A DNA stretch of 63,523 nt, from the NCBI GenBank assembly GCA_041305185.1, contig JBFYLW010000065.1, positions 1 to 63,523 on the forward strand, given 5' to 3'. Of the stretch, positions 2,452 to 63,004 are shown one piece after another (position 1 is the first letter of the stretch; every line of letters begins with the position of its first letter). The notes beneath the pieces are model-generated. The model saw only the letters and a program-made list of their open reading frames with translations. It ran no database searches and was not told where the DNA came from. The stretch is from Nanobdellota archaeon. GTDB lineage: Archaea; Nanobdellota; Nanobdellia; Woesearchaeales; ARS49. Made by a program: the position numbers and the translations under genes.

Positions 2452-3633
2452 TCATTCAAGCAGCTTGTCCAACTCAGAATGCACCCTTGACTCAAAATCA
2501 GCAACCCTTTCACCATCAGCTTTCTCAGCAGACAAAACAAGCATCAACTTCTTCGCAAGCTCAACATCAAACTCCTTGAACTGAGCAGAATGCTGGTGCA
2601 ACAAAGAATCCTCAACCTCCTCAACATTCGCCTCCTTAACCATAATAACTTCCAACTCCTTGCTCGAAAAAGCATTCGTATTCTTCAAAACAACAAAAGC
2701 ACCCTTAGCATAAACATCAAGAAAAATATCATTCCAACGCAAATCAGCAGGACGACCAGTCTTCAAACAACCAGACACGCGAATTGTAACAATGGCATTA
2801 TTCACATTCGGCAACCTGCGAACTTCAGCCTCAACCTCAGACAAACTCTTGTTATCAGCACTAACAGAAATACAAACAACAGGATGCGCTGCAAGAGGAA
2901 TATGCTTAATGTCTCCATCATTATACAAAACAAAACTGCCCTGTTTCAGTTTTTCAAGCTCGGAAAAACTGTTAGGAAAAACAGGACCAGGAAAAACAAT
3001 ATTCTTGTACTTGCCAACAGAAGAATTCTCAACAACATGAACATGACCACCAGCATAATAATCAAAACCAGCAGGCAACAAACTAACAGCCAAAGCATCC
3101 ATCTCTCCAAGATCTTTAGGTTTCAATTCAGCCAAAGCGCTATGAAACAAAAAAATCTTGAAACCAGACTCATCCTCCAAAAACTCACGAGCAAGAAGCT
3201 TATAGTAACTCGACTCAAGACCAGCCTTCTTGCCAATCAATCCAACAATCTTAGCACCAGACTTGTCTAAAGTAAAATGAAGTTTAATCCTGTTGTCAGG
3301 CAATTCCTCACCTTTTGCGACGTTAACGCCAAGACCAGCATGCTCCAAAACATCAAGCATGGTTTTACCACTTGGAGAAAAATCATGACTGCCAGCAATA
3401 AAGTAAAGCGGAATACTAGAATCATGCAAACGCTTGAACTGCTCAACAGCAACCTTCAAACTATCAATACCAGGAACAGCAGTATTAAACAAATCACCGG
3501 ATAACAAGACAAAGTTCACTTTTTCGGATAGACATTTGTCGATTGCAGAAACAAAAGCTTCAGTATTAGCCATCCTCAACTTAGGCTCACGCCAGCTACC
3601 CAAATGACAATCAGCAAGATGCGCGAATTTCAT
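2452..3633 (-). CDS. mre11: Mre11-type DNA double-strand-break repair nuclease (calcineurin-like metallophosphoesterase)
   Basis: MKFAHLADCHLG, SGDLFN, AGSHD and GGHVH phosphoesterase motifs in the canonical order. It sits directly downstream of herA. Confidence 0.85.
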   Translation of the reverse strand: MKFAHLADCHLGSWREPKLRMANTEAFVSAIDKCLSEKVNFVLLSGDLFNTAVPGIDSLKVAVEQFKRLHDSSIPLYFIAGSHDFSPSGKTMLDVLEHAGLGVNVAKGEELPDNRIKLHFTLDKSGAKIVGLIGKKAGLESSYYKLLAREFLEDESGFKIFLFHSALAELKPKDLGEMDALAVSLLPAGFDYYAGGHVHVVENSSVGKYKNIVFPGPVFPNSFSELEKLKQGSFVLYNDGDIKHIPLAAHPVVCISVSADNKSLSEVEAEVRRLPNVNNAIVTIRVSGCLKTGRPADLRWNDIFLDVYAKGAFVVLKNTNAFSSKELEVIMVKEANVEEVEDSLLHQHSAQFKEFDVELAKKLMLVLSAEKADGERVADFESRVHSELDKLLE

Positions 3634-5646: not shown

Positions 5647-5877
5647 ATGGCAGAAAAAGTAGCTAAAGTCGGAGTAAAAAAAGTTGAAGGCCATCTCTAC
5701 TTTGTAGACAAGGCAGGCGATGTTTCCAGAGCAAAAATGGCTCGCGGAAGAAAAGGAAAAGCAGGAAAAATAGAAAAAGTAGCCAAAGTAAACGTCAAGA
5801 AAGTCGGCGGATACTTGTACTTTGTAGACAAGGCAGGAGATGTCTCACGAGCAAAAATGGCACGAGGAGGCAAATAA
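5647..5877 (+). CDS. Small basic protein built from a tandem duplication of a ~36-aa module
   Basis: GGAGG lies 7 nt before the ATG at 5647. The modules are EKVAKVGVKKVEGHLYFVDKAGDVSRAKMARG and EKVAKVNVKKVGGYLYFVDKAGDVSRAKMARG. Confidence 0.6.
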   Translation: MAEKVAKVGVKKVEGHLYFVDKAGDVSRAKMARGRKGKAGKIEKVAKVNVKKVGGYLYFVDKAGDVSRAKMARGGK

Positions 5878-5898: not shown

Positions 5899-6417
5899 TT
5901 ATAATTTTAGCCCTTTAACAGAATTAGGATAATTAGCTTCAAACAAAGCAAGAACCCGTTTTCTAAGATCCTTAAAAACAGAATTAGCATTGCATACAGC
6001 CTCGCCTGTATCCTTGCCAAGAACTTTATTTTGCAAGTAATCTCTTCGAAGCTTGTTAAGTGTTGATACATAAACATCAGCATCCTCCCTGGGCAAGCCA
6101 TACTTTTTCTGCTCCTCTATACATCTAAGACACTCAGTCAAAGACAATGCAAGATTAAGACCAATAGTATTATGCCTCCAGCCATGATAATAATCATACA
6201 AGTTTTTGAATTCCTTTGCAAGAAAATAAGCCAGATGACCTGAAGGAGTGACGTTATTACTATTCATCCAACCATACTTATCCATTAAATCAAGACCAAC
6301 AGCTATAAGTTCATGCTCATCATCCAAAGGATTTGCAATAGAAACTTCCAACCCCGAAACCTCTTTCATAATATTATGAATGACTCTAAACCGCATAAGA
6401 ATCTTATATTCCCACAT
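5899..6417 (-). CDS. Hypothetical protein; start uncertain (alternatives at 6396 and 6369)
   Basis: No recognisable motifs. A TATA-like attcttaaatatct on the minus strand (~6437-6450) would place a leaderless start near 6417. Composition is non-native (T-rich on the + strand). Confidence 0.4.
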   Translation of the reverse strand: MWEYKILMRFRVIHNIMKEVSGLEVSIANPLDDEHELIAVGLDLMDKYGWMNSNNVTPSGHLAYFLAKEFKNLYDYYHGWRHNTIGLNLALSLTECLRCIEEQKKYGLPREDADVYVSTLNKLRRDYLQNKVLGKDTGEAVCNANSVFKDLRKRVLALFEANYPNSVKGLKL

Positions 6418-6537
6418 AAAAACCAGAAAAATTAAGAGATATTTAAGAATATGCTCGATTAAACAGTCAAATATTCTTAAACAACGAAAATTATATATAC
6501 AGCCCAAAAAAGCATACATGAAAAAGAGAGTGGGTTA

Positions 6538-39041: not shown

Positions 39042-39065
39042 CATTAATTCAAAAAAGTGAAAAAA

Positions 39066-40112
39066 ATGAAAAAAACCAACACATTACCATTCATTTCCCT
39101 GCTAATAATAGCAGCCATGATTACTGCACCTCTGATAGTTGCAGACGCGTGGGATTCAGATGCCTGGGCAGTAACTGACTCAAGCTGGAGCGGAAACTCT
39201 TTCTCAGTCTTTGACTGGAGCTGGAGCGGAGACGCGTGGGCAGTAGATGATAACAGCTGGAGCGGCGACTCTTTTGCAGTAGACGATAACAGCTGGAGCG
39301 GTGATTCTTTCGCAGTAGATGATAACAGTTGGAGTGGAAGTTCAGATTACGGCAGTACAACAGGCATGGACACAACAACACCAAGCACGCCAGGAGCGAA
39401 TGACTTTGTAGAAGGACTAGGAGGAGTACCTCCAGGAGGACCACTACCACAGCCAGAACCATTCCCAACAAACGCAGACGCCAAATGGCAAAGTTTAGAT
39501 GACATAACAATATACCAAGGAGCAACATCAGGAACAACAATACAGCAAAACATATTCTCAAAATGCTCAGACCCTGATGACAAAAACCTCGAATTCAAAA
39601 TAACAAGCAAATCACAAAACTTCGAACTGGCATTCTCAGGAAGCGACCTCAAAATATACAACCTCAAAACAGCATTCATAGGAAAAGAAATAATAACAAT
39701 TGAATGCAACAAAGTACCAGAAAGCTTTGCATTAAACGTAATACCAAGACAAATAACACCAACACCGCCTGCAACAAGTTCAAGTGATGATGGAGACGGA
39801 ATCAGCGTGTTCATAGGAGCGATAAGACTGCCGGAAGAATCAACAGCAGGAGAACAAATCCCAATACTAATTTCTTTCAAAAACAGCGGCGATAAAAAGC
39901 TTGAAAACGTCAAAGCAGTAGTGGTAATAACAGACTTGGGCGTAAGAGCATCAATAGGCCCATTCGACCTGACAAAAGGAAAAAGCATAAGCAAAACAAT
40001 ATACGTGGAACTGCCTGAAGACACACAAACAGGAACATACACTGCAAGAATAACGATTGACAGCTCATCAGTCCACAGAGTAAAACACCGCGACGTAGAA
40101 GTCATATCTTAG
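39066..40112 (+). CDS. Secreted protein with Trp-rich DDNSWSGDSFAV repeats and a C-terminal CARDB/Ig-like domain
   Basis: Signal peptide MKKTNTLPFISLLIIAAMITAPLIVADA, then repeats, then a beta-sandwich-like tail (GEQIPILISFKNSGDKKLENVKAVVVITDLG...). Confidence 0.65.
   Translation: MKKTNTLPFISLLIIAAMITAPLIVADAWDSDAWAVTDSSWSGNSFSVFDWSWSGDAWAVDDNSWSGDSFAVDDNSWSGDSFAVDDNSWSGSSDYGSTTGMDTTTPSTPGANDFVEGLGGVPPGGPLPQPEPFPTNADAKWQSLDDITIYQGATSGTTIQQNIFSKCSDPDDKNLEFKITSKSQNFELAFSGSDLKIYNLKTAFIGKEIITIECNKVPESFALNVIPRQITPTPPATSSSDDGDGISVFIGAIRLPEESTAGEQIPILISFKNSGDKKLENVKAVVVITDLGVRASIGPFDLTKGKSISKTIYVELPEDTQTGTYTARITIDSSSVHRVKHRDVEVIS
39240..39347 (+). repeat. Three tandem 36-bp coding repeats, with degenerate copies upstream from about 39160
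   Basis: gcagtagatgataacagctggagcggcgactctttt / gcagtagacgataacagctggagcggtgattctttc / gcagtagatgataacagttggagtggaagttcagat. Confidence 0.85.
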
Positions 40113-47532: not shown

Positions 47533-49245
47533 TTACCTTCTTAAAAATTTTTCCAATTTTTTCAACGGCCAAGTATTAATAACATCCTTAGCCTCTGCCC
47601 AACCACGCCTCGCCTGAGCAACACCGAATTTAATGAAACGCAAATGGTCAACAGAATGAGAATCAGTATCAATTGAAATCTTACAGCCAACCTCAATCGC
47701 CTTTCTGATATGCACGTCCTTCAAATCAAGACGGTCAGGATAAGAATTCACTTCCAACGCAATCCCCCTTTCCTTAGCGGCAACCGCAACCTTCTCAAAA
47801 TCAAAATCGTAAGGCTCACGACGGCCAATCAACCTGCCAGTCGGATGAGCAAAAATGTTCAAGTAAGGATTCTCAAAAGCCTTCAAAATACGCTTCGTCA
47901 TATCCTCACGTGAGGACTTAAAGCGCGAATGAACAGAAGCAACAACCAAATCAAGCTCTTTCAAGTATTTATCACTATAATCAAGAGAGCCGTCAGCTAA
48001 AATATCAACCTCAGAACCCTTCAAAATACGAATGCCAACTTTCTTCTGAACCCTATCAATTTCCTTCAAATATCTCACAAGACGCTTCTCATCCATGCCA
48101 TTAGCAATATGCTCGCTTTTTGAATGATCAGTAAACGCAACGTACTGGTAACCCATCTTCTCAGCAGTTCTCGCCATCTGCTCAATACTATACAAACCAT
48201 CACTCCAATTCGAATGAACGTGCAAATCACCCTTAATATCACCATAAGAAATCAAATCAGGCAATCTGTGCTTTTTAGCAGCCTCAATCTCGCCATGATT
48301 CTCCCTCAATTCAGGAGGAATCAAAGGCAAACCAAGCTTTGCATAAACCTCCCTCTCAGACCTGCCACAAACATACCGGTCTTTCTTGAACAAACCATAC
48401 TCTGACAGCTTGAAACCCTTCTTAATGGCAATCTGCCTGAGCACGATATTATGATCCTTACTGCCGGTAAAATACTGCAAAGCAGAACCAAAAGACCTCT
48501 CGTCAAGAACGCGGACATCGGACTGGATACCCTCAGACAAAATAACAGTGCTCTTAGTAAGACCTTTAGCAAGAACAACCTTGACCTCAGGCATCTTTGT
48601 GAAAAAGTCCATAACCTTCGCAGGCTTCTTGCTGATAACAAGAATATCAATATCACCAACAGTCTCGCTCATACGACGCAAGCTGCCAGCAGGCTCAACT
48701 CTCGCAACACCATCAACCCTTGACAAACGCTCAGCAATCTCCTGCGCAACAGGCAAAGCAACACCCAGCAAAGAACGCTCAGCACCTTTCTTAACGATTT
48801 CCAAACCACGCAAAATATCCTGCTCGCTCTTAATACCAAAACCAGCAAGCCTCCTCAACTTACCGGCCTTAGCAGCACGCTCAAGCTGCTCAACAGACTT
48901 AATCTTCAACTCCTTGTACAAACGCATAACCTTCTTAGGACCAAGACCAGGAACGCGCATCATCTCCTCAACACCCTCAGGAATCTTCTTCACAATCTGC
49001 AAAAATTCCTTCATCTTTCCAGTCCTCAAAAACTCCTCAATCTTCCCAGCAATACTTTGACCAACACCAGGAATGTCCATCAACGCCTTTATTCCGCCTG
49101 TAGCATAGAGTTTCTCAACAGGCTCACAAATTTCCAAAGCACGAGCAGCCTTACGATAAGCAGCAGGCTTCCAATCAATGCCCTGCATCTCCAGAACGTC
49201 AGCCATCTCGTAAAACATCTCAGCAATCTCACGATTTCGGGTCAT
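47533..49245 (-). CDS. polX: Family X DNA polymerase with C-terminal PHP phosphoesterase domain
   Basis: HhH segments (IPGVGQSIAGKI, VPGLGPKKV), the nucleotidyltransferase motif GSLRRMSETVGDIDILV, and PHP DLHVHSNWSDG. The start at MTRNREIAEMF is preferred. Confidence 0.85.
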   Translation of the reverse strand: MTRNREIAEMFYEMADVLEMQGIDWKPAAYRKAARALEICEPVEKLYATGGIKALMDIPGVGQSIAGKIEEFLRTGKMKEFLQIVKKIPEGVEEMMRVPGLGPKKVMRLYKELKIKSVEQLERAAKAGKLRRLAGFGIKSEQDILRGLEIVKKGAERSLLGVALPVAQEIAERLSRVDGVARVEPAGSLRRMSETVGDIDILVISKKPAKVMDFFTKMPEVKVVLAKGLTKSTVILSEGIQSDVRVLDERSFGSALQYFTGSKDHNIVLRQIAIKKGFKLSEYGLFKKDRYVCGRSEREVYAKLGLPLIPPELRENHGEIEAAKKHRLPDLISYGDIKGDLHVHSNWSDGLYSIEQMARTAEKMGYQYVAFTDHSKSEHIANGMDEKRLVRYLKEIDRVQKKVGIRILKGSEVDILADGSLDYSDKYLKELDLVVASVHSRFKSSREDMTKRILKAFENPYLNIFAHPTGRLIGRREPYDFDFEKVAVAAKERGIALEVNSYPDRLDLKDVHIRKAIEVGCKISIDTDSHSVDHLRFIKFGVAQARRGWAEAKDVINTWPLKKLEKFLRR

Positions 49246-49636
49246 GCAAAAACTCACCTGCCTTTTTCAAAACCTCTTTAGCATTATCATAAGTAAGCTT
49301 AGCCAAAGCATCATTAAAAGAAAGCCAGATAAAATCCTTGTGCTCGTGCGACAAAACAACTTTGCTGGTCCTTGTCTTGGCAACAAAAAAAACAACCTCC
49401 TTAGAAATAAGCTGACCCTCTTTCCTGAAAAAATAACGAATGCCTGCGGAAAAACCAGGCAAAAGTTCAGCATCAACAATGCCGGTTTCCTCCTTTAACT
49501 CTCTTAAAGCAGCCTGCTCAGCAGACTCATCCTTCTCAATATGACCCTTAGGAAAATCCCAATGACCTGCATCGTAAAGAAGCAACAAAAACTTGCCATC
49601 ATTAACAACAACAACACCAGCACATCTCTCTTGCAT
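49229..49636 (-). CDS. NUDIX hydrolase (Ap4A-hydrolase-like)
   Basis: Nudix box GHWDFPKGHIEKDESAEQAALRELKEETG. It overlaps the polX start by 17 nt. Confidence 0.8.
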   Translation of the reverse strand: MQERCAGVVVVNDGKFLLLLYDAGHWDFPKGHIEKDESAEQAALRELKEETGIVDAELLPGFSAGIRYFFRKEGQLISKEVVFFVAKTRTSKVVLSHEHKDFIWLSFNDALAKLTYDNAKEVLKKAGEFLHDPKS

Positions 49637-52246: not shown

Positions 52247-53986
52247 CTACCTTCTAGATGAACGTCTTTTCCTGCCTTTTTCAGACTTTTTAGAACTCCT
52301 TGTAAGAAGCAAAACAAAAATTCCGCCAAGACCAAAACCAACAACAAAAACAAACAAAGCAGGAGGAATAGAGAATTTCTCAACAACAGGCAATACAGGC
52401 TTTTTTTCCTGAAAATAAATATCCAAATTCGACAATTCCAAAGCATACTCAGTAAACAACAGACAGGAAACCCTGTCAAAACTCCTCAAAGATTTAGCAT
52501 ACTCATAATAACTATACGCAATAATAGGGAAAATGTTCTTTTGCTGAGCCTTAATCAAAGCCTGCCGGGTAATCTCAAGCTTCAAATCAATAACCTCATC
52601 AAAACGAGACTCCTCAACACCCATCAAGCCAAGAACAACATCAGCCTCTGACTTTGCCTTAGAAGCAACATAAAGACACATAATATAATCACCGTTATTC
52701 AAAAGACCATAAGACTTGTCAATATCATCCCTAGTAGCATCAAGCGCTTCAGGAATCATGCTCTTAACATAATTATAACGCTCCTCAGCCTCAGAAATCT
52801 TGGAAATGCAAACAGACTTCAAATCCTCAGTATTAATAACAAAAGTCTGATTGCCATTAAAAAACCTCGCCCAAGTAATACCAGAAAACAAGCGCTCCTC
52901 AGCATAACCAAGCTCGCCAGCCATATCCGTCTCATTTTTATCAAGAGCTTCAGAAACAACAGCCAAAGAATCCTCAGCCTCACCAATACGCTCCATAACA
53001 GCCATGAACGTTTGAACGTCACCCAAACTTGAAACATTCCTACCATTAAACTTCTTCTTAACCGCTTCAGTCTCATGCTTCAACAAGTCAACCTTTTCCA
53101 ACAATTGCTCCTTAGAAAAATTCTGCTCCTCATACCAAGCACGCTTGTACTCAACATTAGCACGGAAACAATAAGAAGCAGAAGCATAAAATGCACCATC
53201 CAACTGTTCCTTCGCAGCCCGCTCAGTATAATTTGCGACCTGCGTCATATTCGCCTTAATCGGCACAGAAAGATAATCCTTAGTACGCTGACACAAATCA
53301 TTAGAAACATCACGCATAATCCTCTGATAACGCTCCTCAATATTCAACGAATCACTGCCACGATACTGCGGAAAACCAAGAGAAAGCTCCAAAGCATCAC
53401 CAAGAGTGGAAACCTCCATAACAGTCAAATTCAATCCCCTGCCAAACTCAACAAGATCAGTAGTCACATTATTCTCCTTAGAATCCTTTGTGCCCGCAGG
53501 CAAATAAACAGTCCTAATGCTATTATTAGCAGCAGCCATAACCTTATACTTCAAACCACCAACAGGACCAATAATCCCGCCGCTATTGATAGTCCCAGTC
53601 ATAGCAACATCCTGAGGAACAGTCTTATTCAAAAGCAAAGCCGCAGTCAAAAAAGCAGCAGCACTACCAGCACTCGGACCACCAACAATACCCGGCATAG
53701 CACGAATCGTAAACAAGAAATCATACTTAGAACAATCAACTTCAACCTGCTTACAAGCAACCTGCTGAGCAAAACGCAAAGACGCCTGAGTAGTAACCTT
53801 AGTCATAGGATAAGTCGCCAAAAAAACGCGCTCACTACCCGGACGCAATTCCAGATTAAGATTAGCAACAGTGCCAGACTTGCCAGCCTCACTCTCCATC
53901 AAAGCAAGCAAGGTAATATTACCCGAGTTAATAACATTCGCAACTACTACAGTAGAAAGCAAAAGAAAAATAATCACCCATTTCAT
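52247..53986 (-). CDS. Membrane-anchored Lon-like S16 serine protease without an AAA+ module
   Basis: Signal/anchor at the N-terminus. Lon proteolytic domain ...GIVGGPSAGSAAAFLTAALLL...AMTGTINSGGIIGPVGGLKYKV (Ser-Lys dyad regions). C-terminal TM helix and a basic tail. Confidence 0.75.
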   Translation of the reverse strand: MKWVIIFLLLSTVVVANVINSGNITLLALMESEAGKSGTVANLNLELRPGSERVFLATYPMTKVTTQASLRFAQQVACKQVEVDCSKYDFLFTIRAMPGIVGGPSAGSAAAFLTAALLLNKTVPQDVAMTGTINSGGIIGPVGGLKYKVMAAANNSIRTVYLPAGTKDSKENNVTTDLVEFGRGLNLTVMEVSTLGDALELSLGFPQYRGSDSLNIEERYQRIMRDVSNDLCQRTKDYLSVPIKANMTQVANYTERAAKEQLDGAFYASASYCFRANVEYKRAWYEEQNFSKEQLLEKVDLLKHETEAVKKKFNGRNVSSLGDVQTFMAVMERIGEAEDSLAVVSEALDKNETDMAGELGYAEERLFSGITWARFFNGNQTFVINTEDLKSVCISKISEAEERYNYVKSMIPEALDATRDDIDKSYGLLNNGDYIMCLYVASKAKSEADVVLGLMGVEESRFDEVIDLKLEITRQALIKAQQKNIFPIIAYSYYEYAKSLRSFDRVSCLLFTEYALELSNLDIYFQEKKPVLPVVEKFSIPPALFVFVVGFGLGGIFVLLLTRSSKKSEKGRKRRSSRR

Positions 53987-54025
53987 GAAAACAAAAACAT
54001 CATACCCATTTAAGAACTTTTGTTT

Positions 54026-54093
54026 TTTTCAGCACTCTTTTTTGCAGTCTGGTTCGGATTATTAATACGCTCAATATTTCTGCACTTAGGAAA
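54026..54093. repeat. Orphan copy of the 68-bp topA 3'-end segment
   Basis: Identical by eye to 54228-54295. The minus-strand reading continues ...AEKNKSS* to the stop at 54010-54012. Confidence 0.9.
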
Positions 54094-54227
54094 CAAACTT
54101 TTCAAAAAAGTTTGATCAAAACTGCTTTTTGTTCGTGACTCGAGAAGCAATTCATAAATGCTTGCGTTGCAAGCATGTTTAAGACTCTTCTCTCGCACTC
54201 ACAATGTCGCAAACTCAGGCTTTGCCC
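54094..54227 (+). mobile_element. 134-bp hairpin-rich non-coding insert (family member T)
   Basis: Bracketed by the 68-bp duplication. Hairpins are aaactttt-caa-aaaagttt (54095-54113) and atgcttgc-gtt-gcaagcat (54158-54176), with the palindrome tttgatcaaa. It is collinear with 62210-62393. Confidence 0.6.
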
Positions 54228-56428
54228 TTTTCAGCACTCTTTTTTGCAGTCTGGTTCGGATTATTAATACGCTCAATATTTCTGCACTTAGGAAAACGAT
54301 TGCAAGCAAGGAAACTACCATAAACAGACTTACGCACGACCATTTTACCCTCCTTACACTTAGGACAAGGCTTCTCTGCAGTCGCAGGAACAGCCTTACT
54401 AGGACAGTCAAGATTAATACAGACCTCCTGAGGACGCTTGGCTTTGCGAATAATCTTAATCATAGGAAACTTGCAATGAGGACACAAGTTATGAGTAACC
54501 TCAATCAATCCAGAAGAAGGAAGCTTGAAAGTAGTCTTACACTCAGGATACTTGTCACAAGCAATAAACCTGCCAAACTTTCCAAAACGCAAAGTAAGAG
54601 CGCCAGACTTGCAGGCAGGACACTGACCAACAGTCGTCAAAGTAGCCCTAGTCTCACCAAAAGTCTTCTTTAACTCCTCACCAACAATTTTTTCCTTAGA
54701 CTTAAACTCAGAAAGCATTTTCACAAGAACAGTCTTTGCCTCATCAAGAATCTCATCACGATGCTTCTTACCCTCACGAATAGACTCCATATCAATCTCA
54801 AAATGCCTGGTAAGCTCCTCATCCAAAATAGCAGGCGAGTGCTTCTCAAGAATAATAATAATCTCCATACCCAGCTGAGTAACAGTAAAAGACTCACCAG
54901 TAACATAATTACGCCTCTTCAAAGTCTCCACAATCTCAGCACGAGTAGCCTTTGTGCCTAAGTTCCTCTTCTCAAGCTCGCGAATCAAGCTTGCAGGCGT
55001 GTACCTCTTAGGAGGCTGGGTTTGCTCATCATGCAAAACAAACTTCTTGACAGAAATCTCATCGCCCTCCTCCATCTTAGGCAATTCCTCTTCCTCAAGC
55101 TTCACATAAGGAGCATAGAAAATATGCCAGTTCTTCTCAACAGTGCGAGTGCCCTTTGCAACAAAAATTTCCGTATTAACATCAATCCTTGCAATAACAG
55201 TCTCACGAATAGCAGGAGTGCCAAAAACAGAAAAGAAGCGCTTCACAACCAAATCATAAACCTTAGCCTGCCTGTTTTCCAAACTCTTCGGCAAAATACC
55301 AGTAGGAAAAATAGCCGGGTGAGCAGGATCAGTCTTCTTGCCATTATTCGGAACCAACTTATCCTTCTTCAACAACAAATTAGCAAGCTCTGCAAATTCA
55401 GGATGCCTGGCCAAACCCTTCAAAATCTTCTGAAAACCAATACTAGGAGGCAATTCCTGCGAACTAGTACGCGGATAAGAAATCCAACCATTAGTATACA
55501 ATTCCTGAGCAATAGACAAAGTAACACTCGGATTAAGACCAAAACAACGATACGCCTCTGTCTGCAAACTCGTAAGATCAAAAGGAACAGGAGGATTCTG
55601 ATGGAATTGCCCTTTCTTAACCTGAGCAACCTTACCCTTCTTCTTATCCTGCACCTTGCCCATCACGGCAACAGCCTTATCCTTTTCCCAGAACTTATCA
55701 GCCTCATGCCAAGCAACAAGAGACTCACTCTTAGCCTTAGCCTGAAGCTCAATCATCCAATAAGGCACAGGCTTGAAAGCAAGAATCTCACGCTCCCTGT
55801 CAGCAAGAATCTTCAAAGCAGGACCCTGAACACGACCAGTGCTCAAAATCTTGAACATACCAGCATTCTTAATCGCGCTCGTCAACGCCCTTGACAAATT
55901 AATACCATAATAAAAATCCAAAAAGTGACGAGTCTCACCAGCCTCTGCCTGACCCCAATCCAGATGAGCAGAAGCCTTCTCATAAGCCTCAACAAGATCC
56001 TCCTTAGTCAAAGTCGAAAACTTCAAACGATGAGCATCATTCTTATTACAAACAAAACGAACAATATTCAATCCAATAACTTCGCCCTCAACATCGTAGT
56101 CAGTTGCCACAGAAACACTTGAAGCACCCTTAGCAAGCTTTTTCAAAGCATCCAAATACTTCTTAGTAAAAGCAGAATTCTTGTTAATCGTACACGTAGG
56201 CACCCACTCAATATCAAAAACAGGATAAGCAAAACCCTTGGACTTAGTCTTCTCAGCCAAACCAAACAAGTGACCAACAGCACAGCCAACAACAATATCC
56301 TTCTTACCATGCTTAAGCTCATAATAAGGAATACCCTTAATGTCCTTTTTTGATGGAGACCCATCAGCCAAAGCCTCTGCAATACGCTTGGCGGCATCAG
56401 GTTTTTCAGAAACGATTAATTCGTACAT
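54215..56428 (-). CDS. topA: Type IA DNA topoisomerase I with C-terminal Zn-ribbon repeats
   Basis: N-terminal Toprim MYELIVSEKPDAAKRIA...; repeated CPxC...C(x)C zinc ribbons (CPACKSG, CPHCKFP, CPKCKEG). The last 4 codons plus the stop come from the insert. Confidence 0.9.
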   Translation of the reverse strand: MYELIVSEKPDAAKRIAEALADGSPSKKDIKGIPYYELKHGKKDIVVGCAVGHLFGLAEKTKSKGFAYPVFDIEWVPTCTINKNSAFTKKYLDALKKLAKGASSVSVATDYDVEGEVIGLNIVRFVCNKNDAHRLKFSTLTKEDLVEAYEKASAHLDWGQAEAGETRHFLDFYYGINLSRALTSAIKNAGMFKILSTGRVQGPALKILADREREILAFKPVPYWMIELQAKAKSESLVAWHEADKFWEKDKAVAVMGKVQDKKKGKVAQVKKGQFHQNPPVPFDLTSLQTEAYRCFGLNPSVTLSIAQELYTNGWISYPRTSSQELPPSIGFQKILKGLARHPEFAELANLLLKKDKLVPNNGKKTDPAHPAIFPTGILPKSLENRQAKVYDLVVKRFFSVFGTPAIRETVIARIDVNTEIFVAKGTRTVEKNWHIFYAPYVKLEEEELPKMEEGDEISVKKFVLHDEQTQPPKRYTPASLIRELEKRNLGTKATRAEIVETLKRRNYVTGESFTVTQLGMEIIIILEKHSPAILDEELTRHFEIDMESIREGKKHRDEILDEAKTVLVKMLSEFKSKEKIVGEELKKTFGETRATLTTVGQCPACKSGALTLRFGKFGRFIACDKYPECKTTFKLPSSGLIEVTHNLCPHCKFPMIKIIRKAKRPQEVCINLDCPSKAVPATAEKPCPKCKEGKMVVRKSVYGSFLACNRFPKCRNIERINNPNQTAKKSAEKGKA

Positions 56429-58486: not shown

Positions 58487-59503
58487 ATGAGTGAACACTT
58501 CCAAAAAGTATTCCTGCAAACAGACCCATTCACAGACATTCTGGGACAGGAAAGAACAAAACACCAGCTAAAAAGCGCCCTGCTAATGGACAGGCACCTG
58601 ATAATACTTGGACCGCCAGGCATAGGCAAAACAACACTGGCAAAGAACATAGCTAAACTACTACCACAATTAACCCTGAACGAATGCCAATACCACTGCG
58701 ACCCAAAACAACCACTATGCCCGGAATGCAAACTAAAAAAACAAAAAACAGCAAAAGTAACAGGAGAAGAAAGATTTGTACGAGTACAAGGCAGCCCGGA
58801 TTTAACAGTCGAAGATTTGTTAGGAGACATAGACCCAGTCAAAGCACTACAGTTCGGACCAACAAGCATACAAGCATTCACTCCAGGCAAGATATTCAAA
58901 GCAAATTATGGAATACTATTCTTTGACGAAGTAAACAGGTGCCCTGAAAAACTACAAAACGCACTATTACAAGTTCTTGAAGAAGGAAAAGCAACATTAG
59001 GCGCGTATACAGTTGAACTACCAGCAAACTTCATCTTCATCGGCACAATGAACCCAGAAGAAACAGCAGCAACAGAAAAACTATCAGACGTCTTCATGGA
59101 CAGATTTGACATAGTCCACATGGGATACCCAGAAAGCCTGGACATAGAAAAAAGAATAGTACTGGACAAAGGACAGAAATTAACAGTCACCTTCGAAGAA
59201 GATTTACTCGCTCTCGCAATACTATTCGTAAGAATGCTCCGCGAACACAAAAACATACTGAGAAAACCAAGCGTCAGAGCATCAATAGGAATATACGAGC
59301 GAGCACAAGCAAACGCATTCCTGGCAAAAAGAAAAACAGTAACAGCAGAAGACATAACAGAAGCAATAATCTCAGTACTCGCGCACAGAATCGAACTAAA
59401 ACCAAGCGTCAAATACATGCAAACAAACGAAGAATTCATACAAGAACAATTTGACGCATTCTCAGGCCAACACCCCGAGTTAACCGGTGGTGGTGGTCTT
59501 TGA
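58487..59503 (+). CDS. ChlI/MoxR-like AAA+ ATPase
   Basis: Walker A GPPGIGKTT, Walker B ILFFDEVNR, and a Cys-rich insert CQYHCDPKQPLCPECK. It is paired with a downstream VWA protein. Confidence 0.75.
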   Translation: MSEHFQKVFLQTDPFTDILGQERTKHQLKSALLMDRHLIILGPPGIGKTTLAKNIAKLLPQLTLNECQYHCDPKQPLCPECKLKKQKTAKVTGEERFVRVQGSPDLTVEDLLGDIDPVKALQFGPTSIQAFTPGKIFKANYGILFFDEVNRCPEKLQNALLQVLEEGKATLGAYTVELPANFIFIGTMNPEETAATEKLSDVFMDRFDIVHMGYPESLDIEKRIVLDKGQKLTVTFEEDLLALAILFVRMLREHKNILRKPSVRASIGIYERAQANAFLAKRKTVTAEDITEAIISVLAHRIELKPSVKYMQTNEEFIQEQFDAFSGQHPELTGGGGL

Positions 59504-60674
59504 CATCGAGCAAGAAGTAGAAGACATTTCTAAAGGAGAATCCGCCGAAGGAAAACTACACAAACAATACGTAGAAGACAAACTAATGAATTCAGTTCTA
59601 CAGTCAGACAAAAACACAATAGAACACGCAGAACTAATACACGAAGCAACAAACAGAAGCATAGGAGCATTCACGCCCAGCCTGCTGTTTGCGCAAATGG
59701 TCCAAAACTTCTCAATAACAAAACAATTACTCGGAGACAAACTCATAAGATTATTAACAGGGTATGACCCCAATTACATCGAGAAAAACCTGAAAATACC
59801 AGAATTCAGAAAAGAACTACAGAAAGCTTTGTACCAAAACGTTGAGAAACTAAAAGAAGAAGACCTTGTAGACAGAGAAGGACTCATAACGAGCAAAGGA
59901 GCAGAACTCGGAGCAATAGTTCTAGTAAAAGAACTCGACAATTTCATAACAAAAGACAAAATAGGCGAAAAAGTAAACAAAAAAACAGCACATTACGGAG
60001 AAAAAACAGAAACAAGAAAATACAAACACGGAGACAGGTACAAGGATTTGAACATGAAAAGGTCAGTTCACATGGCAATAAGAAGACAACACGCCAAACT
60101 TCACGGAGAAGACCTAATGACCTCGCAAAGAGAAGGCAGAGGAAAAATATCTTTGATATTCGCTTTGGACGCATCAGCAAGCATGAAAGGCAGAAAACTT
60201 GATACTTGCAAAAGAGCAGGAATAGCACTCGCATACAGAGCAATAGAAGACAAAGATGACGTGGGAGTAGTAGTATTTGGAAGCGAAATCAAATCAGCAA
60301 TACCACCAACAAGAGACTTTACAACAATACTAAACGAAATATCACGCATAAAAGCCAGCAGGCAAACAGACTTCGCAGCCATGATAGCAAAAAGCGTCGA
60401 AATGTTTCCAGCAACAGACGAAACAAAACATTTGATAATACTCACAGACGCACTGCCAACAGTAGGCATTGAACCAGAAAAAGAAACACTACAAGCAATA
60501 AGCGCGGCAAGAGGAGCAGGAATAACAGTTTCTTTGATAGGAGTACAATTAGACGAAGCAGGAGCAAAACTGGCAAAACAAATAGTCCGAATAGGAGAAG
60601 GCAGATTCAGCATGGTAAAAGATTTAGACCAAGTAGGACACATAGTATTGGAAGACTATTACGCGATGAGATAG
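59487..60674 (+). CDS. von Willebrand factor A (VWA) domain protein; start uncertain
   Basis: MIDAS-type LIFALDASASMKG... in the C-terminal half. It overlaps the AAA+ gene by 17 nt. Confidence 0.7.
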   Translation: MVVVFDIEQEVEDISKGESAEGKLHKQYVEDKLMNSVLQSDKNTIEHAELIHEATNRSIGAFTPSLLFAQMVQNFSITKQLLGDKLIRLLTGYDPNYIEKNLKIPEFRKELQKALYQNVEKLKEEDLVDREGLITSKGAELGAIVLVKELDNFITKDKIGEKVNKKTAHYGEKTETRKYKHGDRYKDLNMKRSVHMAIRRQHAKLHGEDLMTSQREGRGKISLIFALDASASMKGRKLDTCKRAGIALAYRAIEDKDDVGVVVFGSEIKSAIPPTRDFTTILNEISRIKASRQTDFAAMIAKSVEMFPATDETKHLIILTDALPTVGIEPEKETLQAISAARGAGITVSLIGVQLDEAGAKLAKQIVRIGEGRFSMVKDLDQVGHIVLEDYYAMR

Positions 60675-62134: not shown

Positions 62135-62172
62135 ACTCACAAAGCTTAAAAACAAAACCATCTGACAACTTC

Positions 62173-62209
62173 TCATGAAAATACTCGCCTTCACAGATTT
62201 GCACTCCAA
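62173..62209. repeat. Orphan copy of the 37-bp metallophosphoesterase 5'-end segment (includes the ATG)
   Basis: tcatgaaaatactcgccttcacagatttgcactccaa is identical to 62394-62430. Confidence 0.9.
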
Positions 62210-62393
62210 ACTTTTGGAAAGTTTCAAAGAGCAAAGCTCTTTGAGACCCCGTCGAACTTCGTTCGACGTTGGTTTGATCAAAAGGCGTTCTTCGTTCAGG
62301 CTCCAGAAGCAATTTGATAAATCCTTGTCTTCGACAAGGATGTTTATGACTCTTCTCTCGCCCTCACGATATCACGCAATCCGGAGGCTGCTT
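62210..62393 (+). mobile_element. 184-bp hairpin-rich non-coding insert (family member M)
   Basis: Hairpins are tcaaagagc-aaa-gctctttga (62224-62244), cgtcgaac-ttc-gttcgacg (62250-62268) and atccttgtc-ttc-gacaaggat (62321-62341), with the palindrome tttgatcaaa. The 3' module gtttatgactcttctctcgccctcacgatatcacgcaa matches the topA-locus insert. Confidence 0.6.
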
Positions 62394-62395
62394 TC

Positions 62396-63004
62396 ATGAA
62401 AATACTCGCCTTCACAGATTTGCACTCCAACATAATAGCATATGAAAGAATAAAAGCAAAAGTCAAAAAGTTCAAGCCAGAACTCATATTCTGCCTGGGA
62501 GACTTCACCTACTTCGAACAATACATAGAACAAGTACTGCGAAAACTAAACGAGCTAAAAAAACCAGTCTACATCATACATGGAAACCATGAAAATGAAT
62601 CCATAGTAAAAAAAATCTGCCAAAGACACCGCAACCTGATATACGCACACAACAAAGTAATACCGCTCAACGGATACACAATAATAGCGCATGGCGGCGG
62701 AGGATTCTACACCAGCGGAAAATCAGCAAGAGACAAAGATTTCGACAAACTCATCAGAAAAAACAAGAAAAAACTCAAAGGCAAACTAATACTGTTAACA
62801 CATGCACCGCCCAGAAAAACAAAACTGGACAGACTCAGCTGGGCAGGACACGTAGGATGTGAAAGCTACCTGGAATTCATAAAAAAGTACAAACCAATAC
62901 TCGCACTATCCGGACACCTACACGAAAACTTTAACACCAAAGACAAAAAAGGAAAAACATTAATCTGCAATCCCGGGCCAGCAGGAACGGTGTTCACGAT
63001 ATGA
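62396..63004 (+). CDS. Calcineurin-like metallophosphoesterase (MJ0936/YfcE-like)
   Basis: MKILAFTDLHS, GDFTY, GNHE, and the HGGG...TH...GH motif order. Confidence 0.8.
   Translation: MKILAFTDLHSNIIAYERIKAKVKKFKPELIFCLGDFTYFEQYIEQVLRKLNELKKPVYIIHGNHENESIVKKICQRHRNLIYAHNKVIPLNGYTIIAHGGGGFYTSGKSARDKDFDKLIRKNKKKLKGKLILLTHAPPRKTKLDRLSWAGHVGCESYLEFIKKYKPILALSGHLHENFNTKDKKGKTLICNPGPAGTVFTI

Follow-up and report, generated by a model that had tools for sequence, protein, structure and literature searches.

An insertion at the start of a metallophosphoesterase gene

Near the right end of the window (the whole 63,523-nt stretch of Nanobdellota DNA that was analysed), the sequence around the start codon of a metallophosphoesterase (MPE) gene is present twice. 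The two copies are identical over 37 nt, exactly as the preliminary description had stated, and the match extends on neither side. The segment between them is termed here element E. The features of the locus are as follows:

62146–62152, + strand: TATA-like box at −29 relative to the orphan ATG (TTAAAAA; native, leaderless MPE promoter); conserved in the related lineage L030
62173–62209, + strand: orphan (left) copy of the target, consisting of TC, the ATG, codons 2–11 (MKILAFTDLHS) and AA; in continuity with the native promoter, an arrangement also found in L030
62175–62399, + strand: predicted 74-codon frame running from the orphan ATG through E, its TGA overlapping the real ATG (ATGA)
62210–62393, + strand: element E, MPE copy, 184 bp (62207–62393 if the CAA common to E and target is counted)
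62221–62247, + strand: extra hairpin 1, with a 12-bp stem; missing from the topA copy of E
62250–62268, + strand: extra hairpin 2, CGTCGAAC-TTC-GTTCGACG; also found in copy L001_A
62272–62283, + strand: GTTTGATCAAAA block, 3′ of hairpin P1, conserved across family E
62321–62341, + strand: apical hairpin ATCCTTGTC-TTC-GACAAGGAT (covarying helix 4), with double changes in six of its eight pairs
62348–62361, + strand: most conserved block, GACTCTTCTCTCGC, comprising the 3′ strand of the invariant GAGAAG/CTTCTC helix and an internal loop
62383–62387, + strand: GGAGG in the 3′ tail of E, a putative SD-like motif 8 nt before the retained ATG at 62396
62394–62430, + strand: right copy of the duplication, joined to the gene body
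62396–63004, + strand: MPE gene, intact, 202 aa (Pfam Metallophos, E = 3e-22; 343 homologues, full length)

From left to right, this copy of E is made up of a terminal hairpin (P1), two extra hairpins, a GATCAAA motif, a long irregular hairpin and a 3′ tail. The two extra hairpins, already noticed in the preliminary description, proved to be real. A covariance model built from 16 copies of E (model R1) recognised the MPE copy with 93.5 bits (E = 2e-20), and its fold had a z-score of −4.8. Since the first 37 bases of the gene were copied, the MPE gene stays whole. The 221-bp unit is very probably a recent insertion of E, a non-autonomous and non-coding element, accompanied by a 37-bp target duplication.

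A second copy lies at the end of topA

The MPE insert had been proposed to be related to an insert next to topA. Comparison by blastn of 62210–62393 with 54094–54220 showed 78% identity over 103 nt (E = 1e-14), and model R1 gave the topA insert 126.7 bits, which places both in one family. No further match to the MPE insert was found within the 63.5-kb window. The topA locus is arranged as follows:

54019–54093, + strand: topA 3′ end, orphan copy; runs on into the last codons and stop codon of the ancestral gene (54010–54012), which overlap the TATA box of a Lon-like gene
54094–54220, + strand: element E, topA copy, 127 bp
54215–56428, − strand: topA, 737 aa, with changed last residues (...AEKGKA* instead of ...AEKNKSS*)
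54221–54295, + strand: gene-contiguous copy of the topA 3′ end

The topA duplication is 68 nt long if only the exact match is counted, or 75 nt with three mismatches, which cluster within 7 nt beside E. The tail of E provides the new topA stop codon (TGA, 54215–54217, − strand). The topA orthologues of L025, L026 and L028 lack E, and their C-terminus and TATA overlap agree with those of the left orphan copy in the window; those of L025 and L026 end in ...SETKSS* at the same TTTAAGAAC box.

Empty and mosaic sites in related lineages

The preliminary description had suggested looking for variants lacking the 221-bp unit. In L030, the closest relative found, the MPE site is empty, and the window corresponds to L030 plus exactly these 221 bp. 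Empty sites were likewise seen in L031, L024 and L025. Among same-population variants none lacked the inserts; L014, L015, L016, L021 and L022 all bear them. The pair L012 and L013 was considered as a possible before-and-after case and set aside as ambiguous, since L013 could equally be derived from L012 by recombination between two tandem copies.

E is present repeatedly at the same two spacers in several lineages. The copies found at the MPE spacer in three lineages are mutual closest relatives, yet are joined to the target at different positions. In L023, the promoter copy adjoining E at the MPE locus is of the window type, while the orphan copy is of the L024 type; the promoter and the first 30 nt beside E are 93% identical to the window, versus ∼78% for the rest of the locus. 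Mosaic flanks of this kind in older loci hint at an additional, joint transfer of E and the neighbouring gene end from one lineage to another.

Family E: distribution and make-up

Genome and metagenome scans with the conserved 3′ motif and with covariance models identified 23 copies of E in 15 loci, all of them on contigs resembling Woesearchaeota/DPANN. No copy was found in viral contigs (two patterns), phage records or plasmid records. Comparison with Rfam at gathering and permissive thresholds matched no family (the best match, at chance level, had E = 0.14), and no description of E was found in the literature. Genomes share subtypes of E at different loci; for example, the MPE copy of L023 resembles copy L005_2, which lies beside a tRNA-Gly gene.

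The basic element is ∼125 bp long and comprises the terminal hairpin, the GATCAAA motif and the long irregular hairpin. Its invariant end is hairpin P1, (AA)CAAACTTT...AAAGTTTG, and the opposite end is the tail that follows the long hairpin; the termini read CAAAC... and ...CAGG(TCTAG). Terminal inverted repeats of at least 10 bp are absent: when the 5′ end CAAACTTTTC is compared with the reverse-complemented 3′ end (CCTGAGTTTG or CTAGACCTGA), only 3–4 of 8–10 positions agree. The inverted repeats within E are its internal stems, and the best-conserved sequence lies in unpaired internal loops, not in the arms. E has no ORF. A conserved small ORF starting at an ATG inside E was considered and rejected, as the frames are not conserved and the skew of this genome makes antisense ORFs of this sort common; a promoter carried by E was also rejected, the TTTAAG box not being conserved across subtypes.

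No copy was split by a large cargo and no autonomous version of E was detected; the 5′ and 3′ motifs were always 75–180 nt apart. All model-recognised matches to the 3′ motif in the genome and metagenome scans were complete short elements, and none was the end of a longer, transposase-bearing element, although an IS with no more than a few terminal bases in common would escape such a search. Pfam scans of 20 ORFs in the window revealed no reverse transcriptase (RT), HUH enzyme, transposase or integrase, and no RT, HUH enzyme or transposase appeared in the Pfam lists of called genes from loci L021–L031, which represent a small part of each genome.

Conserved structure and strand asymmetry

In the alignment of E copies, 98.3% of stem cells were paired, compared with 85.5% in shuffled alignments. 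The covariation score was 0.35, as against 0.11 for shuffles and at most 0.09 for slid partners. Compensatory double changes, which the preliminary description had reported for the stems, affected 12 of the 22 pairs, a number reached in none of 500 shuffles. The paired substitutions it had singled out in the apical hairpin are indeed present, ATCCTTGTC/GACAAGGAT at MPE being replaced by ATGCTTGC/GCAAGCAT at topA. This structure is conserved across lineages that are ∼20–30% diverged.

All 23 copies fold better on one and the same strand, and the wobble-type deviations are all on that strand. It is the strand opposite to that used in the preliminary description. On the latter strand, none of 352 stem cells contains a G-U pair, the stems being strictly Watson-Crick. 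The asymmetry supports a single-stranded functional form of E. The optional hairpins are capped by cUUCGg, and the better-folding strand is opposite to these loops; the strand signals are thus conflicting, both as to RNA or DNA and as to the active strand.

Duplications, junctions and polarity

Young copies of E are flanked by direct duplications, ∼14–75 bp long, of the end of a gene or tRNA. The lengths recorded were ∼14, 21–25, 25, 34, 37, 40, ∼60, 68–75 and 75 nt. In ∼190 kb of DNA of this kind, all exact direct repeats that were at least 20 nt long and no more than 6 kb apart either were E itself or flanked it, with two exceptions, namely the mre11 case described below and a 20-nt internal repeat at 5698/5818. 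Older duplications have decayed: that of L010 is 82% identical, and divergence is likewise seen in L005_2 and in the third copy of the target in L007. Seven copies of E had no duplication. The flanking repeats are unrelated between loci; at tRNA genes they reach from the T-loop as far as the 3′ end.

The hairpin end of E pointed towards the orphan copy, and its other end towards the intact gene, in nine of nine independent events (p ∼ 0.004 if both orientations are equally likely). The shared polarity that had been noted at MPE, topA and mre11, with the intact gene body to the right of the insert, thus extends to these nine events. The junction at the hairpin end is precise, with 0–3 nt in common with the target (microhomology); the base preceding it was A in eight cases, T in three, G in four and C in four, and no motif was apparent. 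At about eight of 14 loci, the better-folding strand was co-oriented with both neighbours and started 0–10 nt after a stop codon or the 3′ end of a tRNA.

The mre11 locus had been regarded as a parallel case. It does have a genuine duplication (33 nt exact, or 41 nt at 95% identity) and the gene body does lie to the right of the insert, but the insert does not belong to family E. The insert gave no covariance-model match and is an unrelated cassette containing a nucleotidyltransferase ORF (NTP_transf_2) and a second ORF:

1334–2508, no strand given: mre11-linked insert, a related phenomenon; orphan mre11 3′ end (1334–1390), 1.06-kb cassette, and mre11-contiguous copy (2452–2508)

The two mre11 copies differ at eight positions in the 16 nt beside the insert; most differences are of the synonymous type and include a stop-to-stop change. 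Together with the L023 mosaic, this points to import of an insert along with a gene end, beyond mere duplication followed by drift.

Expression of the MPE gene after the insertion

Genes in the window are either leaderless, with a TATA-like box at −27 to −30, or preceded by GGAGG-like motifs; such SD-like motifs precede operon-internal genes. The GGAGG that had been reported in the tail of E and the 74-codon frame that stops in ATGA are both where the preliminary description had placed them. This frame was open in ∼4% of shuffled sequences (p ∼ 0.04), mildly above chance. It is plausible that termination-reinitiation at this site keeps the MPE gene expressible. The route that we infer is that MPE would be transcribed from its old promoter as the second cistron; ribosomes translating the 74-codon frame would cross E and then reinitiate at the overlapping ATGA, aided by the GGAGG.

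A probable polar mode of insertion

The explanation that best accounts for these observations, which we favour tentatively, is that E is a non-autonomous element that enters its target by a polar, single-strand-mediated copy-in process, either target-primed (SINE-like) or one-ended. That insertion is polar seems probable; a version involving RNA and RT is possible but doubtful. The tail end of E would first be joined at or just outside a gene boundary (at MPE, 2 nt before the ATG, approximately where the leaderless mRNA starts), and the hairpin end would then be joined 14–75 bp further on, inside the gene, at 0–3 nt of microhomology. A single strand of E would be copied into the nicked target, much as a SINE is by target-primed reverse transcription, and filling in the staggered gap would duplicate the gene end. 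The copying enzyme would be encoded elsewhere in the genome and act in trans. We infer that a single strand or RNA serves as the intermediate, that the joins take place in this order and that the enzyme acts in trans. With the gene end duplicated, one copy stays with the gene body and the other with the signals of the neighbour, so that both genes survive even where spacers are 10–40 bp. The recurrence of E at the same two spacers is not predicted by this explanation unless a target preference is added. Neither end of E bears an A-tract and no internal promoter is evident; the lack of a poly(A) or SINE-like tail and of such a promoter does not fit a SINE-type reading.

A somewhat unlikely alternative is a one-ended DNA mechanism, in which E would be mobilised from its fixed hairpin end along with a variable length of the adjacent gene, either by a rolling-circle or HUH-like process (as with IS91, ISCR, Helitrons or oriT) or by uptake and homology-facilitated illegitimate recombination. 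The gene-side flank would recombine homologously with the corresponding gene of the recipient, the hairpin end would join illegitimately inside the gene, and the gene end of the recipient would become the orphan copy. Such a mechanism would also explain the polarity, and it agrees with the mosaic at L023, the clustered differences beside the inserts at mre11 and topA, the close relationship of the MPE-spacer copies in three lineages despite their different joins, the copies lacking a duplication, and the strictly Watson-Crick stems on the strand of the preliminary description. It requires, however, a donor that already has E directly beside the same gene, and so leaves first arrivals unexplained. 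Further, the MPE duplication in the window is perfect, the only donor-type stretch would be a 14-nt tail, the homologous anchors would be short and diverged, and no HUH or relaxase gene was seen among the proteins scanned.

Less likely still, E could be a MITE that depends for its movement on a DDE transposase acting in trans, one whose staggered cuts are long. The direct repeats of IS1634/IS1549 vary from 8 to 514 bp by a mechanism that is not agreed upon, and the family is common and diverse in archaea (PMC2266710). The ends of E fit weakly the loose IS1634-family terminal consensus C-----YT, and E is small, non-coding, multi-copy and intergenic. Yet inverted repeats are missing from its termini, a polarity of nine in nine is unexpected from symmetric cut-and-paste, conservation peaks in internal loops instead of arms, and no model-recognised 3′ motif in the genome and metagenome scans ends a transposase-bearing element.

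It is improbable that E is primarily a host-useful RNA or DNA signal at gene boundaries (a terminator, 3′-UTR stabiliser or insulator) kept by selection, the duplications having arisen by local recombination or by replication slippage at its hairpins. The co-orientation with neighbours just past stop codons or tRNA 3′ ends and the conservation of structure across diverged lineages are consistent with a function, and tandem arrays of E plus target could grow or shrink by unequal crossing-over. However, the same spacers are empty in related lineages, copies of one subtype occupy unrelated loci in different genomes, and slippage cannot generate a first X-E-X arrangement from a single-copy site; a function would in any case be compatible with mobility, as in REP elements.

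That the duplications are attL and attR sites of a site-specific integrase, as in islands at tRNA 3′ ends, is hardly credible: the repeats at tRNA genes do occupy a classical integrase sublocation, but the lack of relationship between the repeats of different loci, which leaves no common att site, already contradicts this reading, and their variable length, the absence of an integrase or any gene in the insert, and a would-be circle of only 170–260 bp also speak against it.

Three further candidates were rejected: a CRISPR-like mini-array, with which the 184-nt length of the ‘spacer’ and the origin of the repeats from genes are at odds; the template and variable repeats of a diversity-generating retroelement (DGR), as there is no difference between the repeats and no adenine-specific pattern; and a self-splicing or archaeal bulge-helix-bulge (BHB) intron, which would produce no duplication and for which there was no ribozyme match.

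Implications

DPANN genomes are ∼1 Mb in size, their spacers measure a few tens of bases, and promoters overlap the stop codon of the neighbouring gene; ordinary insertions should therefore be lethal. Family E represents one way around this, since the duplicated gene end lets both neighbours keep their signals, and E itself supplies a new stop codon at topA and a putative ribosome-binding site at MPE. It is conceivable, though we hold it with considerable reserve, that E is the first archaeal example of a mobile element that is either retroposon-like (target-primed) or one-ended and flank-carrying. Its structured, single-stranded form and long duplications would let it enter compact genomes while sparing both neighbours, and it would in addition transfer promoters and gene ends from one DPANN lineage to another. 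Should the polar mechanism be confirmed, one could test directly whether prokaryotes have, apart from group II introns, any non-LTR-style retroposition (or a one-ended DNA analogue), and how the long, variable duplications of IS1634/IS1549 come about. E also marks recombination tracts between lineages, making it a possible tracer of gene flow in uncultivated archaea. In addition, it is a hazard for annotation, as it gives rise to orphan start codons, to spurious short ORFs and to changed C-termini, which pipelines will miscall.

Comparison with known systems

The insertion mode of E fits no described prokaryotic transposon. Like classical MITEs, E is small, multi-copy, intergenic and taxon-restricted. 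A survey of prokaryotic MITEs, which found a very high density in a Woesearchaeal genome, defined them by terminal inverted repeats of at least 10–15 bp and duplications of 2–10 bp (PMC11602168). E, in contrast, lacks terminal repeats, and its duplications (∼14–75 bp) are not of a fixed short length. With the 1.5–2 kb elements IS1634/IS1549, it has in common long and variable target duplications, but those elements carry a transposase and terminal inverted repeats, both of which E lacks, and E shows a single polarity.

REPINs and REP sequences with their RAYT, and palindromes derived from IS200/IS605, resemble E in being imperfect hairpins of ∼100 nt with compensatory changes, located between genes at gene ends, and in their strand-specific, single-stranded biology. 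To our knowledge, they generate no target duplication. E differs from them in its duplications and in the absence of a fixed 4–5-nt target; a Y1 transposase gene was not seen among the proteins scanned. Rolling-circle elements (IS91, ISCR, Helitrons) are similar to E in lacking inverted repeats, in being polar with a hairpin inside one end, and in co-mobilising adjacent DNA from one fixed end. As far as we know, they have defined terminal motifs and produce no target duplication. Unlike Helitrons and IS91, E has neither TC...CTRR ends nor a GTTC/CTTG target, and its young copies are flanked by duplications.

We know of no SINE-like retroposition described in archaea. E differs from the SINEs and other target-primed retroposons of eukaryotes in its archaeal host, in its longer duplications (up to 75 bp), and in lacking an A-rich or LINE-matching tail, a known internal promoter and, among the proteins scanned, an RT partner. 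Nevertheless, it resembles them in being short, non-coding and structured, without inverted repeats and presumably served by an enzyme encoded elsewhere, and in producing target duplications of variable length with two mechanistically different junctions, the second of which shows microhomology.

The insert at the metallophosphoesterase gene

The preliminary description had placed an insert within a 37-nt duplication at the start of the metallophosphoesterase gene (MPE), and this was borne out, the identity between the two 37-nt copies ending exactly at both limits. The kinship proposed with an insert at topA was also upheld (E=1e-14, with 78% identity along 103 nt), and this was the only match to the MPE insert in the window. 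Both are copies of a hairpin-rich, non-coding mobile element family, here called E. The relevant features of the window are:

62173-62209: first 37-nt copy (the orphan copy, cut off from the gene body by E)
62210-62393: E copy at MPE, 184 bp
62394-62430: second 37-nt copy, joined to the gene body
62396..63004 (+): MPE, Metallophos protein
54094-54220: E copy at topA (type IA topoisomerase)
1334-2508: 1.06-kb cassette at the 3′ end of mre11 (Mre11); 57 nt of the gene end are duplicated

The gene identities in this list agree with those first assigned. Variants without the 221-bp unit were found among the loci compared (L001-L031; suffixes denote separate E copies within a locus). The nearest relative found, L030, whose MPE is 82% identical, shares the promoter and the stop codon of the SpoIIM-like upstream gene and has a single 37-nt sequence and the remainder of the gene; its alignment to the window leaves a clean 221-nt gap. 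The site was likewise empty in L031, L024 and L025. Judged from these alignments, E at MPE is an insertion.

Two kinds of gene occur in the window. Leaderless ones have their TATA-like box at -27..-30, and operon-internal ones follow a GGAGG- or GGGGG-like motif; the position of the box relative to the ATG implies leaderless mRNAs for many of the other genes. The box of the native MPE promoter is 29 nt upstream of the orphan ATG, so the orphan copy is where transcription is expected to begin. The 74-codon frame described across the insert was found, terminating in ATGA, as was the GGAGG 8 nt upstream of the retained ATG. A ribosome would then translate 74 codons across E and halt where a TGA overlaps the real ATG, itself now preceded by that GGAGG. 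Shuffling leaves this frame open in about 4% of cases only; of the frames in other E copies about 27% are open, although those copies are shorter. Expression of MPE by such a route is plausible.

The window (38.6% G+C) looks like a DPANN archaeon, and the close relatives of its proteins are labeled Candidatus Woesearchaeota. An additional 1.8-kb island (L014 1323-3127) is present in a near-identical (99.7%) population at window position ~60673, between a VWA-domain gene (59487..60674) and the next gene, with no flanking duplication; its translated ORFs may encode a TrmB-type regulator, a RelE/ParE-like protein and a small membrane protein.

Copies and architecture of E

A scan with the most conserved block of E recovered the element from 6 genome and 11 metagenome contigs; three more matches, in high-GC bacteria, were discarded as chance matches. 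Additional syntenic loci were retrieved via MPE homologues, and a covariance model search then gave 23 copies at 15 loci. All E-bearing contigs look archaeal; their GC content is low, with a single exception at 54%. No copy was found in the viral contigs, phage records or plasmids searched, and E had no match in Rfam. The basic element is ~125 nt long and, on the forward strand (its orientation in the window), consists of:

Part 1: terminal hairpin P1, (AA)CAAACTTT-loop-AAAGTTTG
Part 2: GATCAAA
Part 3: long, irregular hairpin containing an invariant GAGAAG/CTTCTC helix; its internal loops are conserved and its tip varies
Part 4: short tail ...GTCGCAAACTCAGG, followed in some copies by TCTAG

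The copies examined have neither terminal inverted repeats nor a conserved ORF. Some carry optional hairpins; the two extra ones described for the MPE copy were present, one being common to L001_A. Another pair, covarying and cUUCGg-capped, is common to L005_1 and L017. The extra pairs in these long variants (L005 123-385 and L017 5878-6060) are homologous and sit between short direct repeats (GACTCG / GACTTG..GATTCG), their stems covarying between both genomes.

Structure and strand of E

The paired substitutions reported between the apical hairpins of the MPE and topA copies were present, and the covariation claimed from them proved correct for the whole family. In a MAFFT alignment of 16 copies, Watson-Crick combinations filled 98.3% of the cells across 22 predicted pairs (85.5% in shuffles). 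Double, compensatory changes occurred in 12 of the 22, a count equaled by 0 of 500 shuffles, and the covariation score was 0.35, against 0.11 for shuffles and ≤0.09 for slid partners.

G-U pairs were absent from the forward strand (0/352 cells). The rare deviations were A·C on that strand, i.e. G·U on the complement, and the complement folded more stably in 23/23 copies (mean advantage 5.7 kcal/mol), so the folded strand may be the complement. At about 8 of 14 loci the complement is co-oriented with both neighboring genes, starting 0-10 nt past a stop codon or tRNA 3′ end. Counter to this reading, the cUUCGg loops lie on the forward strand, in copies co-oriented with their neighbors in that sense.

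Target duplications and polarity

Duplications flanking E copies
L023, topA: about 14 nt
L019_1, 3′ part of an intron-containing tRNA: 21-25 nt
L019_2, tRNA-Met 3′ end and trailer: 25 nt
L019_3, tRNA-Met 3′ end and trailer: 34 nt
Window, MPE: 37 nt
L001/L007/L012, 3′ end of a 148-aa gene: 40 nt
L005_2, promoter and 5′ half of tRNA-Gly, diverged: about 60 nt
Window, topA: 68-75 nt
L010, copies 82% identical: 75 nt

Seven E copies, located in spacers, lack a flanking duplication. Over ~190 kb of such DNA, the exact direct repeats (≥20 nt, no more than 6 kb apart) were all E or E-flanking, apart from the one at mre11 and an internal repeat of 20 nt at 5698/5818. In all nine events counted as independent the P1 end adjoins the orphan copy and the tail adjoins the gene-joined copy; the gene end that is duplicated is either 5′, on the strand of E, or 3′, on the opposite strand (p ~0.004 against the equal orientations of symmetric cut-and-paste, with n=9 and some events in related MAGs that may share ancestry). 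The P1 end is precise, with 0-3 nt in common with the target (CTCCAA|ACTTTT at MPE, GGAAA|CAAAC at topA; AA precedes P1 in the L001 group). E is established as a non-autonomous element with a long, variable target duplication and a single polarity.

Other repeats in the window are a 103-nt direct repeat at 5652-5874 (78% identity, spacing 120 nt), just upstream of ORF 5899..6519 on the opposite strand, and four to five tandem 36-nt repeats (...AGCTGGAGCGG...) at 39158-39337, within ORF 39057..40112, a probable surface protein with a repetitive 12-residue motif. The L019 tRNA gene whose 3′ end directly abuts E (3042-3160, - strand; 119 nt, apparently intron-containing) was found by the Rfam tRNA model (40.5 bits) and missed by ARAGORN.

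Recurrence and mosaic loci

E is an insertion at topA as well: L025/L026 and L028 lack it there, and their topA to Lon-like gene spacing is just 9 or 28 nt. In L025/L026 the topA C-terminus (...SETKSS*) has its stop codon within the Lon TATA box, and the left, orphan topA copy of the window (AEKNKSS*) shows the same arrangement; at 53986-54016 the ancestral stop lies inside a TATA-like box, the ORF gap being only ~23 nt. The gene-contiguous copy extends 6 nt into E and terminates at an E-derived TGA.

Differences between gene-end copies concentrate beside the insert at topA (3 mismatches in the first 7 nt) and at mre11 (8 differences in 16 nt, mostly synonymous-type; three codons change synonymously and one stop replaces another, DKLLE* vs DGLLQ*). 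It is as if the mre11 cassette had arrived together with another lineage's mre11 end. The cassette holds a nucleotidyltransferase ORF (NTP_transf_2) and a 154-aa ORF with no Pfam match, possibly an MNT/HEPN-type toxin-antitoxin pair.

The same two spacers hold E in several lineages, at differing positions and with differing subtypes. L023 has a second E at the topA end, and the SpoIIM-MPE spacer contains:

Window: E at +35
L023: E at +23, promoter duplicated
L017: E upstream of the promoter, no duplication
L028 (9862-10000): degenerate, apparently permuted remnant (...CTCTCGC..CTCACAATG - hairpin - CTTGTTCGTCG), uncalled by the covariance model

The remnant suggests long residence of E in this spacer. 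The L023 MPE locus is a mosaic: its orphan copy is of the type of its closest relative, L024, while its promoter and the first 30 nt adjoining E are 93% identical to the window (~78% between both genomes elsewhere). Tandem arrays are ordered E, target copy, E, gene-joined target copy, with identical target boundaries, and apical hairpins have been exchanged between otherwise identical copies. Two near-identical populations (L012 210-508 and L013 535-663) differ by one unit of E plus a 40-nt target copy, the single E in L013 resembling a recombinant of the two in L012.

Simple target duplication leaves the recurrence, the mosaic, the clustered differences and the arrays unexplained; taken together, they suggest additional movement of E with its adjoining gene end from lineage to lineage, and recombination. 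Another possibility is homing of E to these loci by flank homology.

Possible insertion mechanisms

We infer that the two junctions of E arise by separate steps. One end would be set at or near a gene boundary, the second joined via microhomology 14-75 bp away, and the stretch between them duplicated through fill-in. In these genomes an insertion would be survivable only if the stretch it duplicates includes a gene end, which would explain the observed locations. A family X DNA polymerase encoded in the window (47533-49257, - strand; Pol beta thumb/palm, HHH and PHP domains) is a candidate gap filler at the microhomology joins, although nothing ties this gene to E.

The polarity, precise end, microhomology, strand-asymmetric structure and absence of terminal inverted repeats favor an intermediate that is single-stranded and is copied into a nicked target, by analogy with TPRT or SINEs. 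An RNA/RT version of this is less likely than not, since no RT was seen among the proteins scanned, E has neither a SINE-like tail nor an internal promoter, and its stems pair by Watson-Crick rules alone. A one-ended DNA route, whether rolling-circle or HUH-like or by homology-facilitated illegitimate recombination, would account better for the mosaics but leaves first arrivals unexplained, and we hold it to be rather unlikely. Action of a DDE transposase on E has a precedent in IS1634 and IS1549, whose DDE enzyme can make 8-514-bp duplications (PMC2266710), but is improbable, as E lacks terminal inverted repeats and a symmetric reaction fails to predict its polarity.

Comparison with known elements

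No description of E was found in the literature searched; that its mechanism is new for archaea is conceivable, though we would not expect it. A 2024 survey reported a very high MITE density in one Woesearchaeal genome, defining MITEs by terminal repeats and 2-10-bp duplications (PMC11602168). E differs from the surveyed elements in falling outside that definition on both counts, although it may be hidden in MITE catalogues by way of its internal stems.
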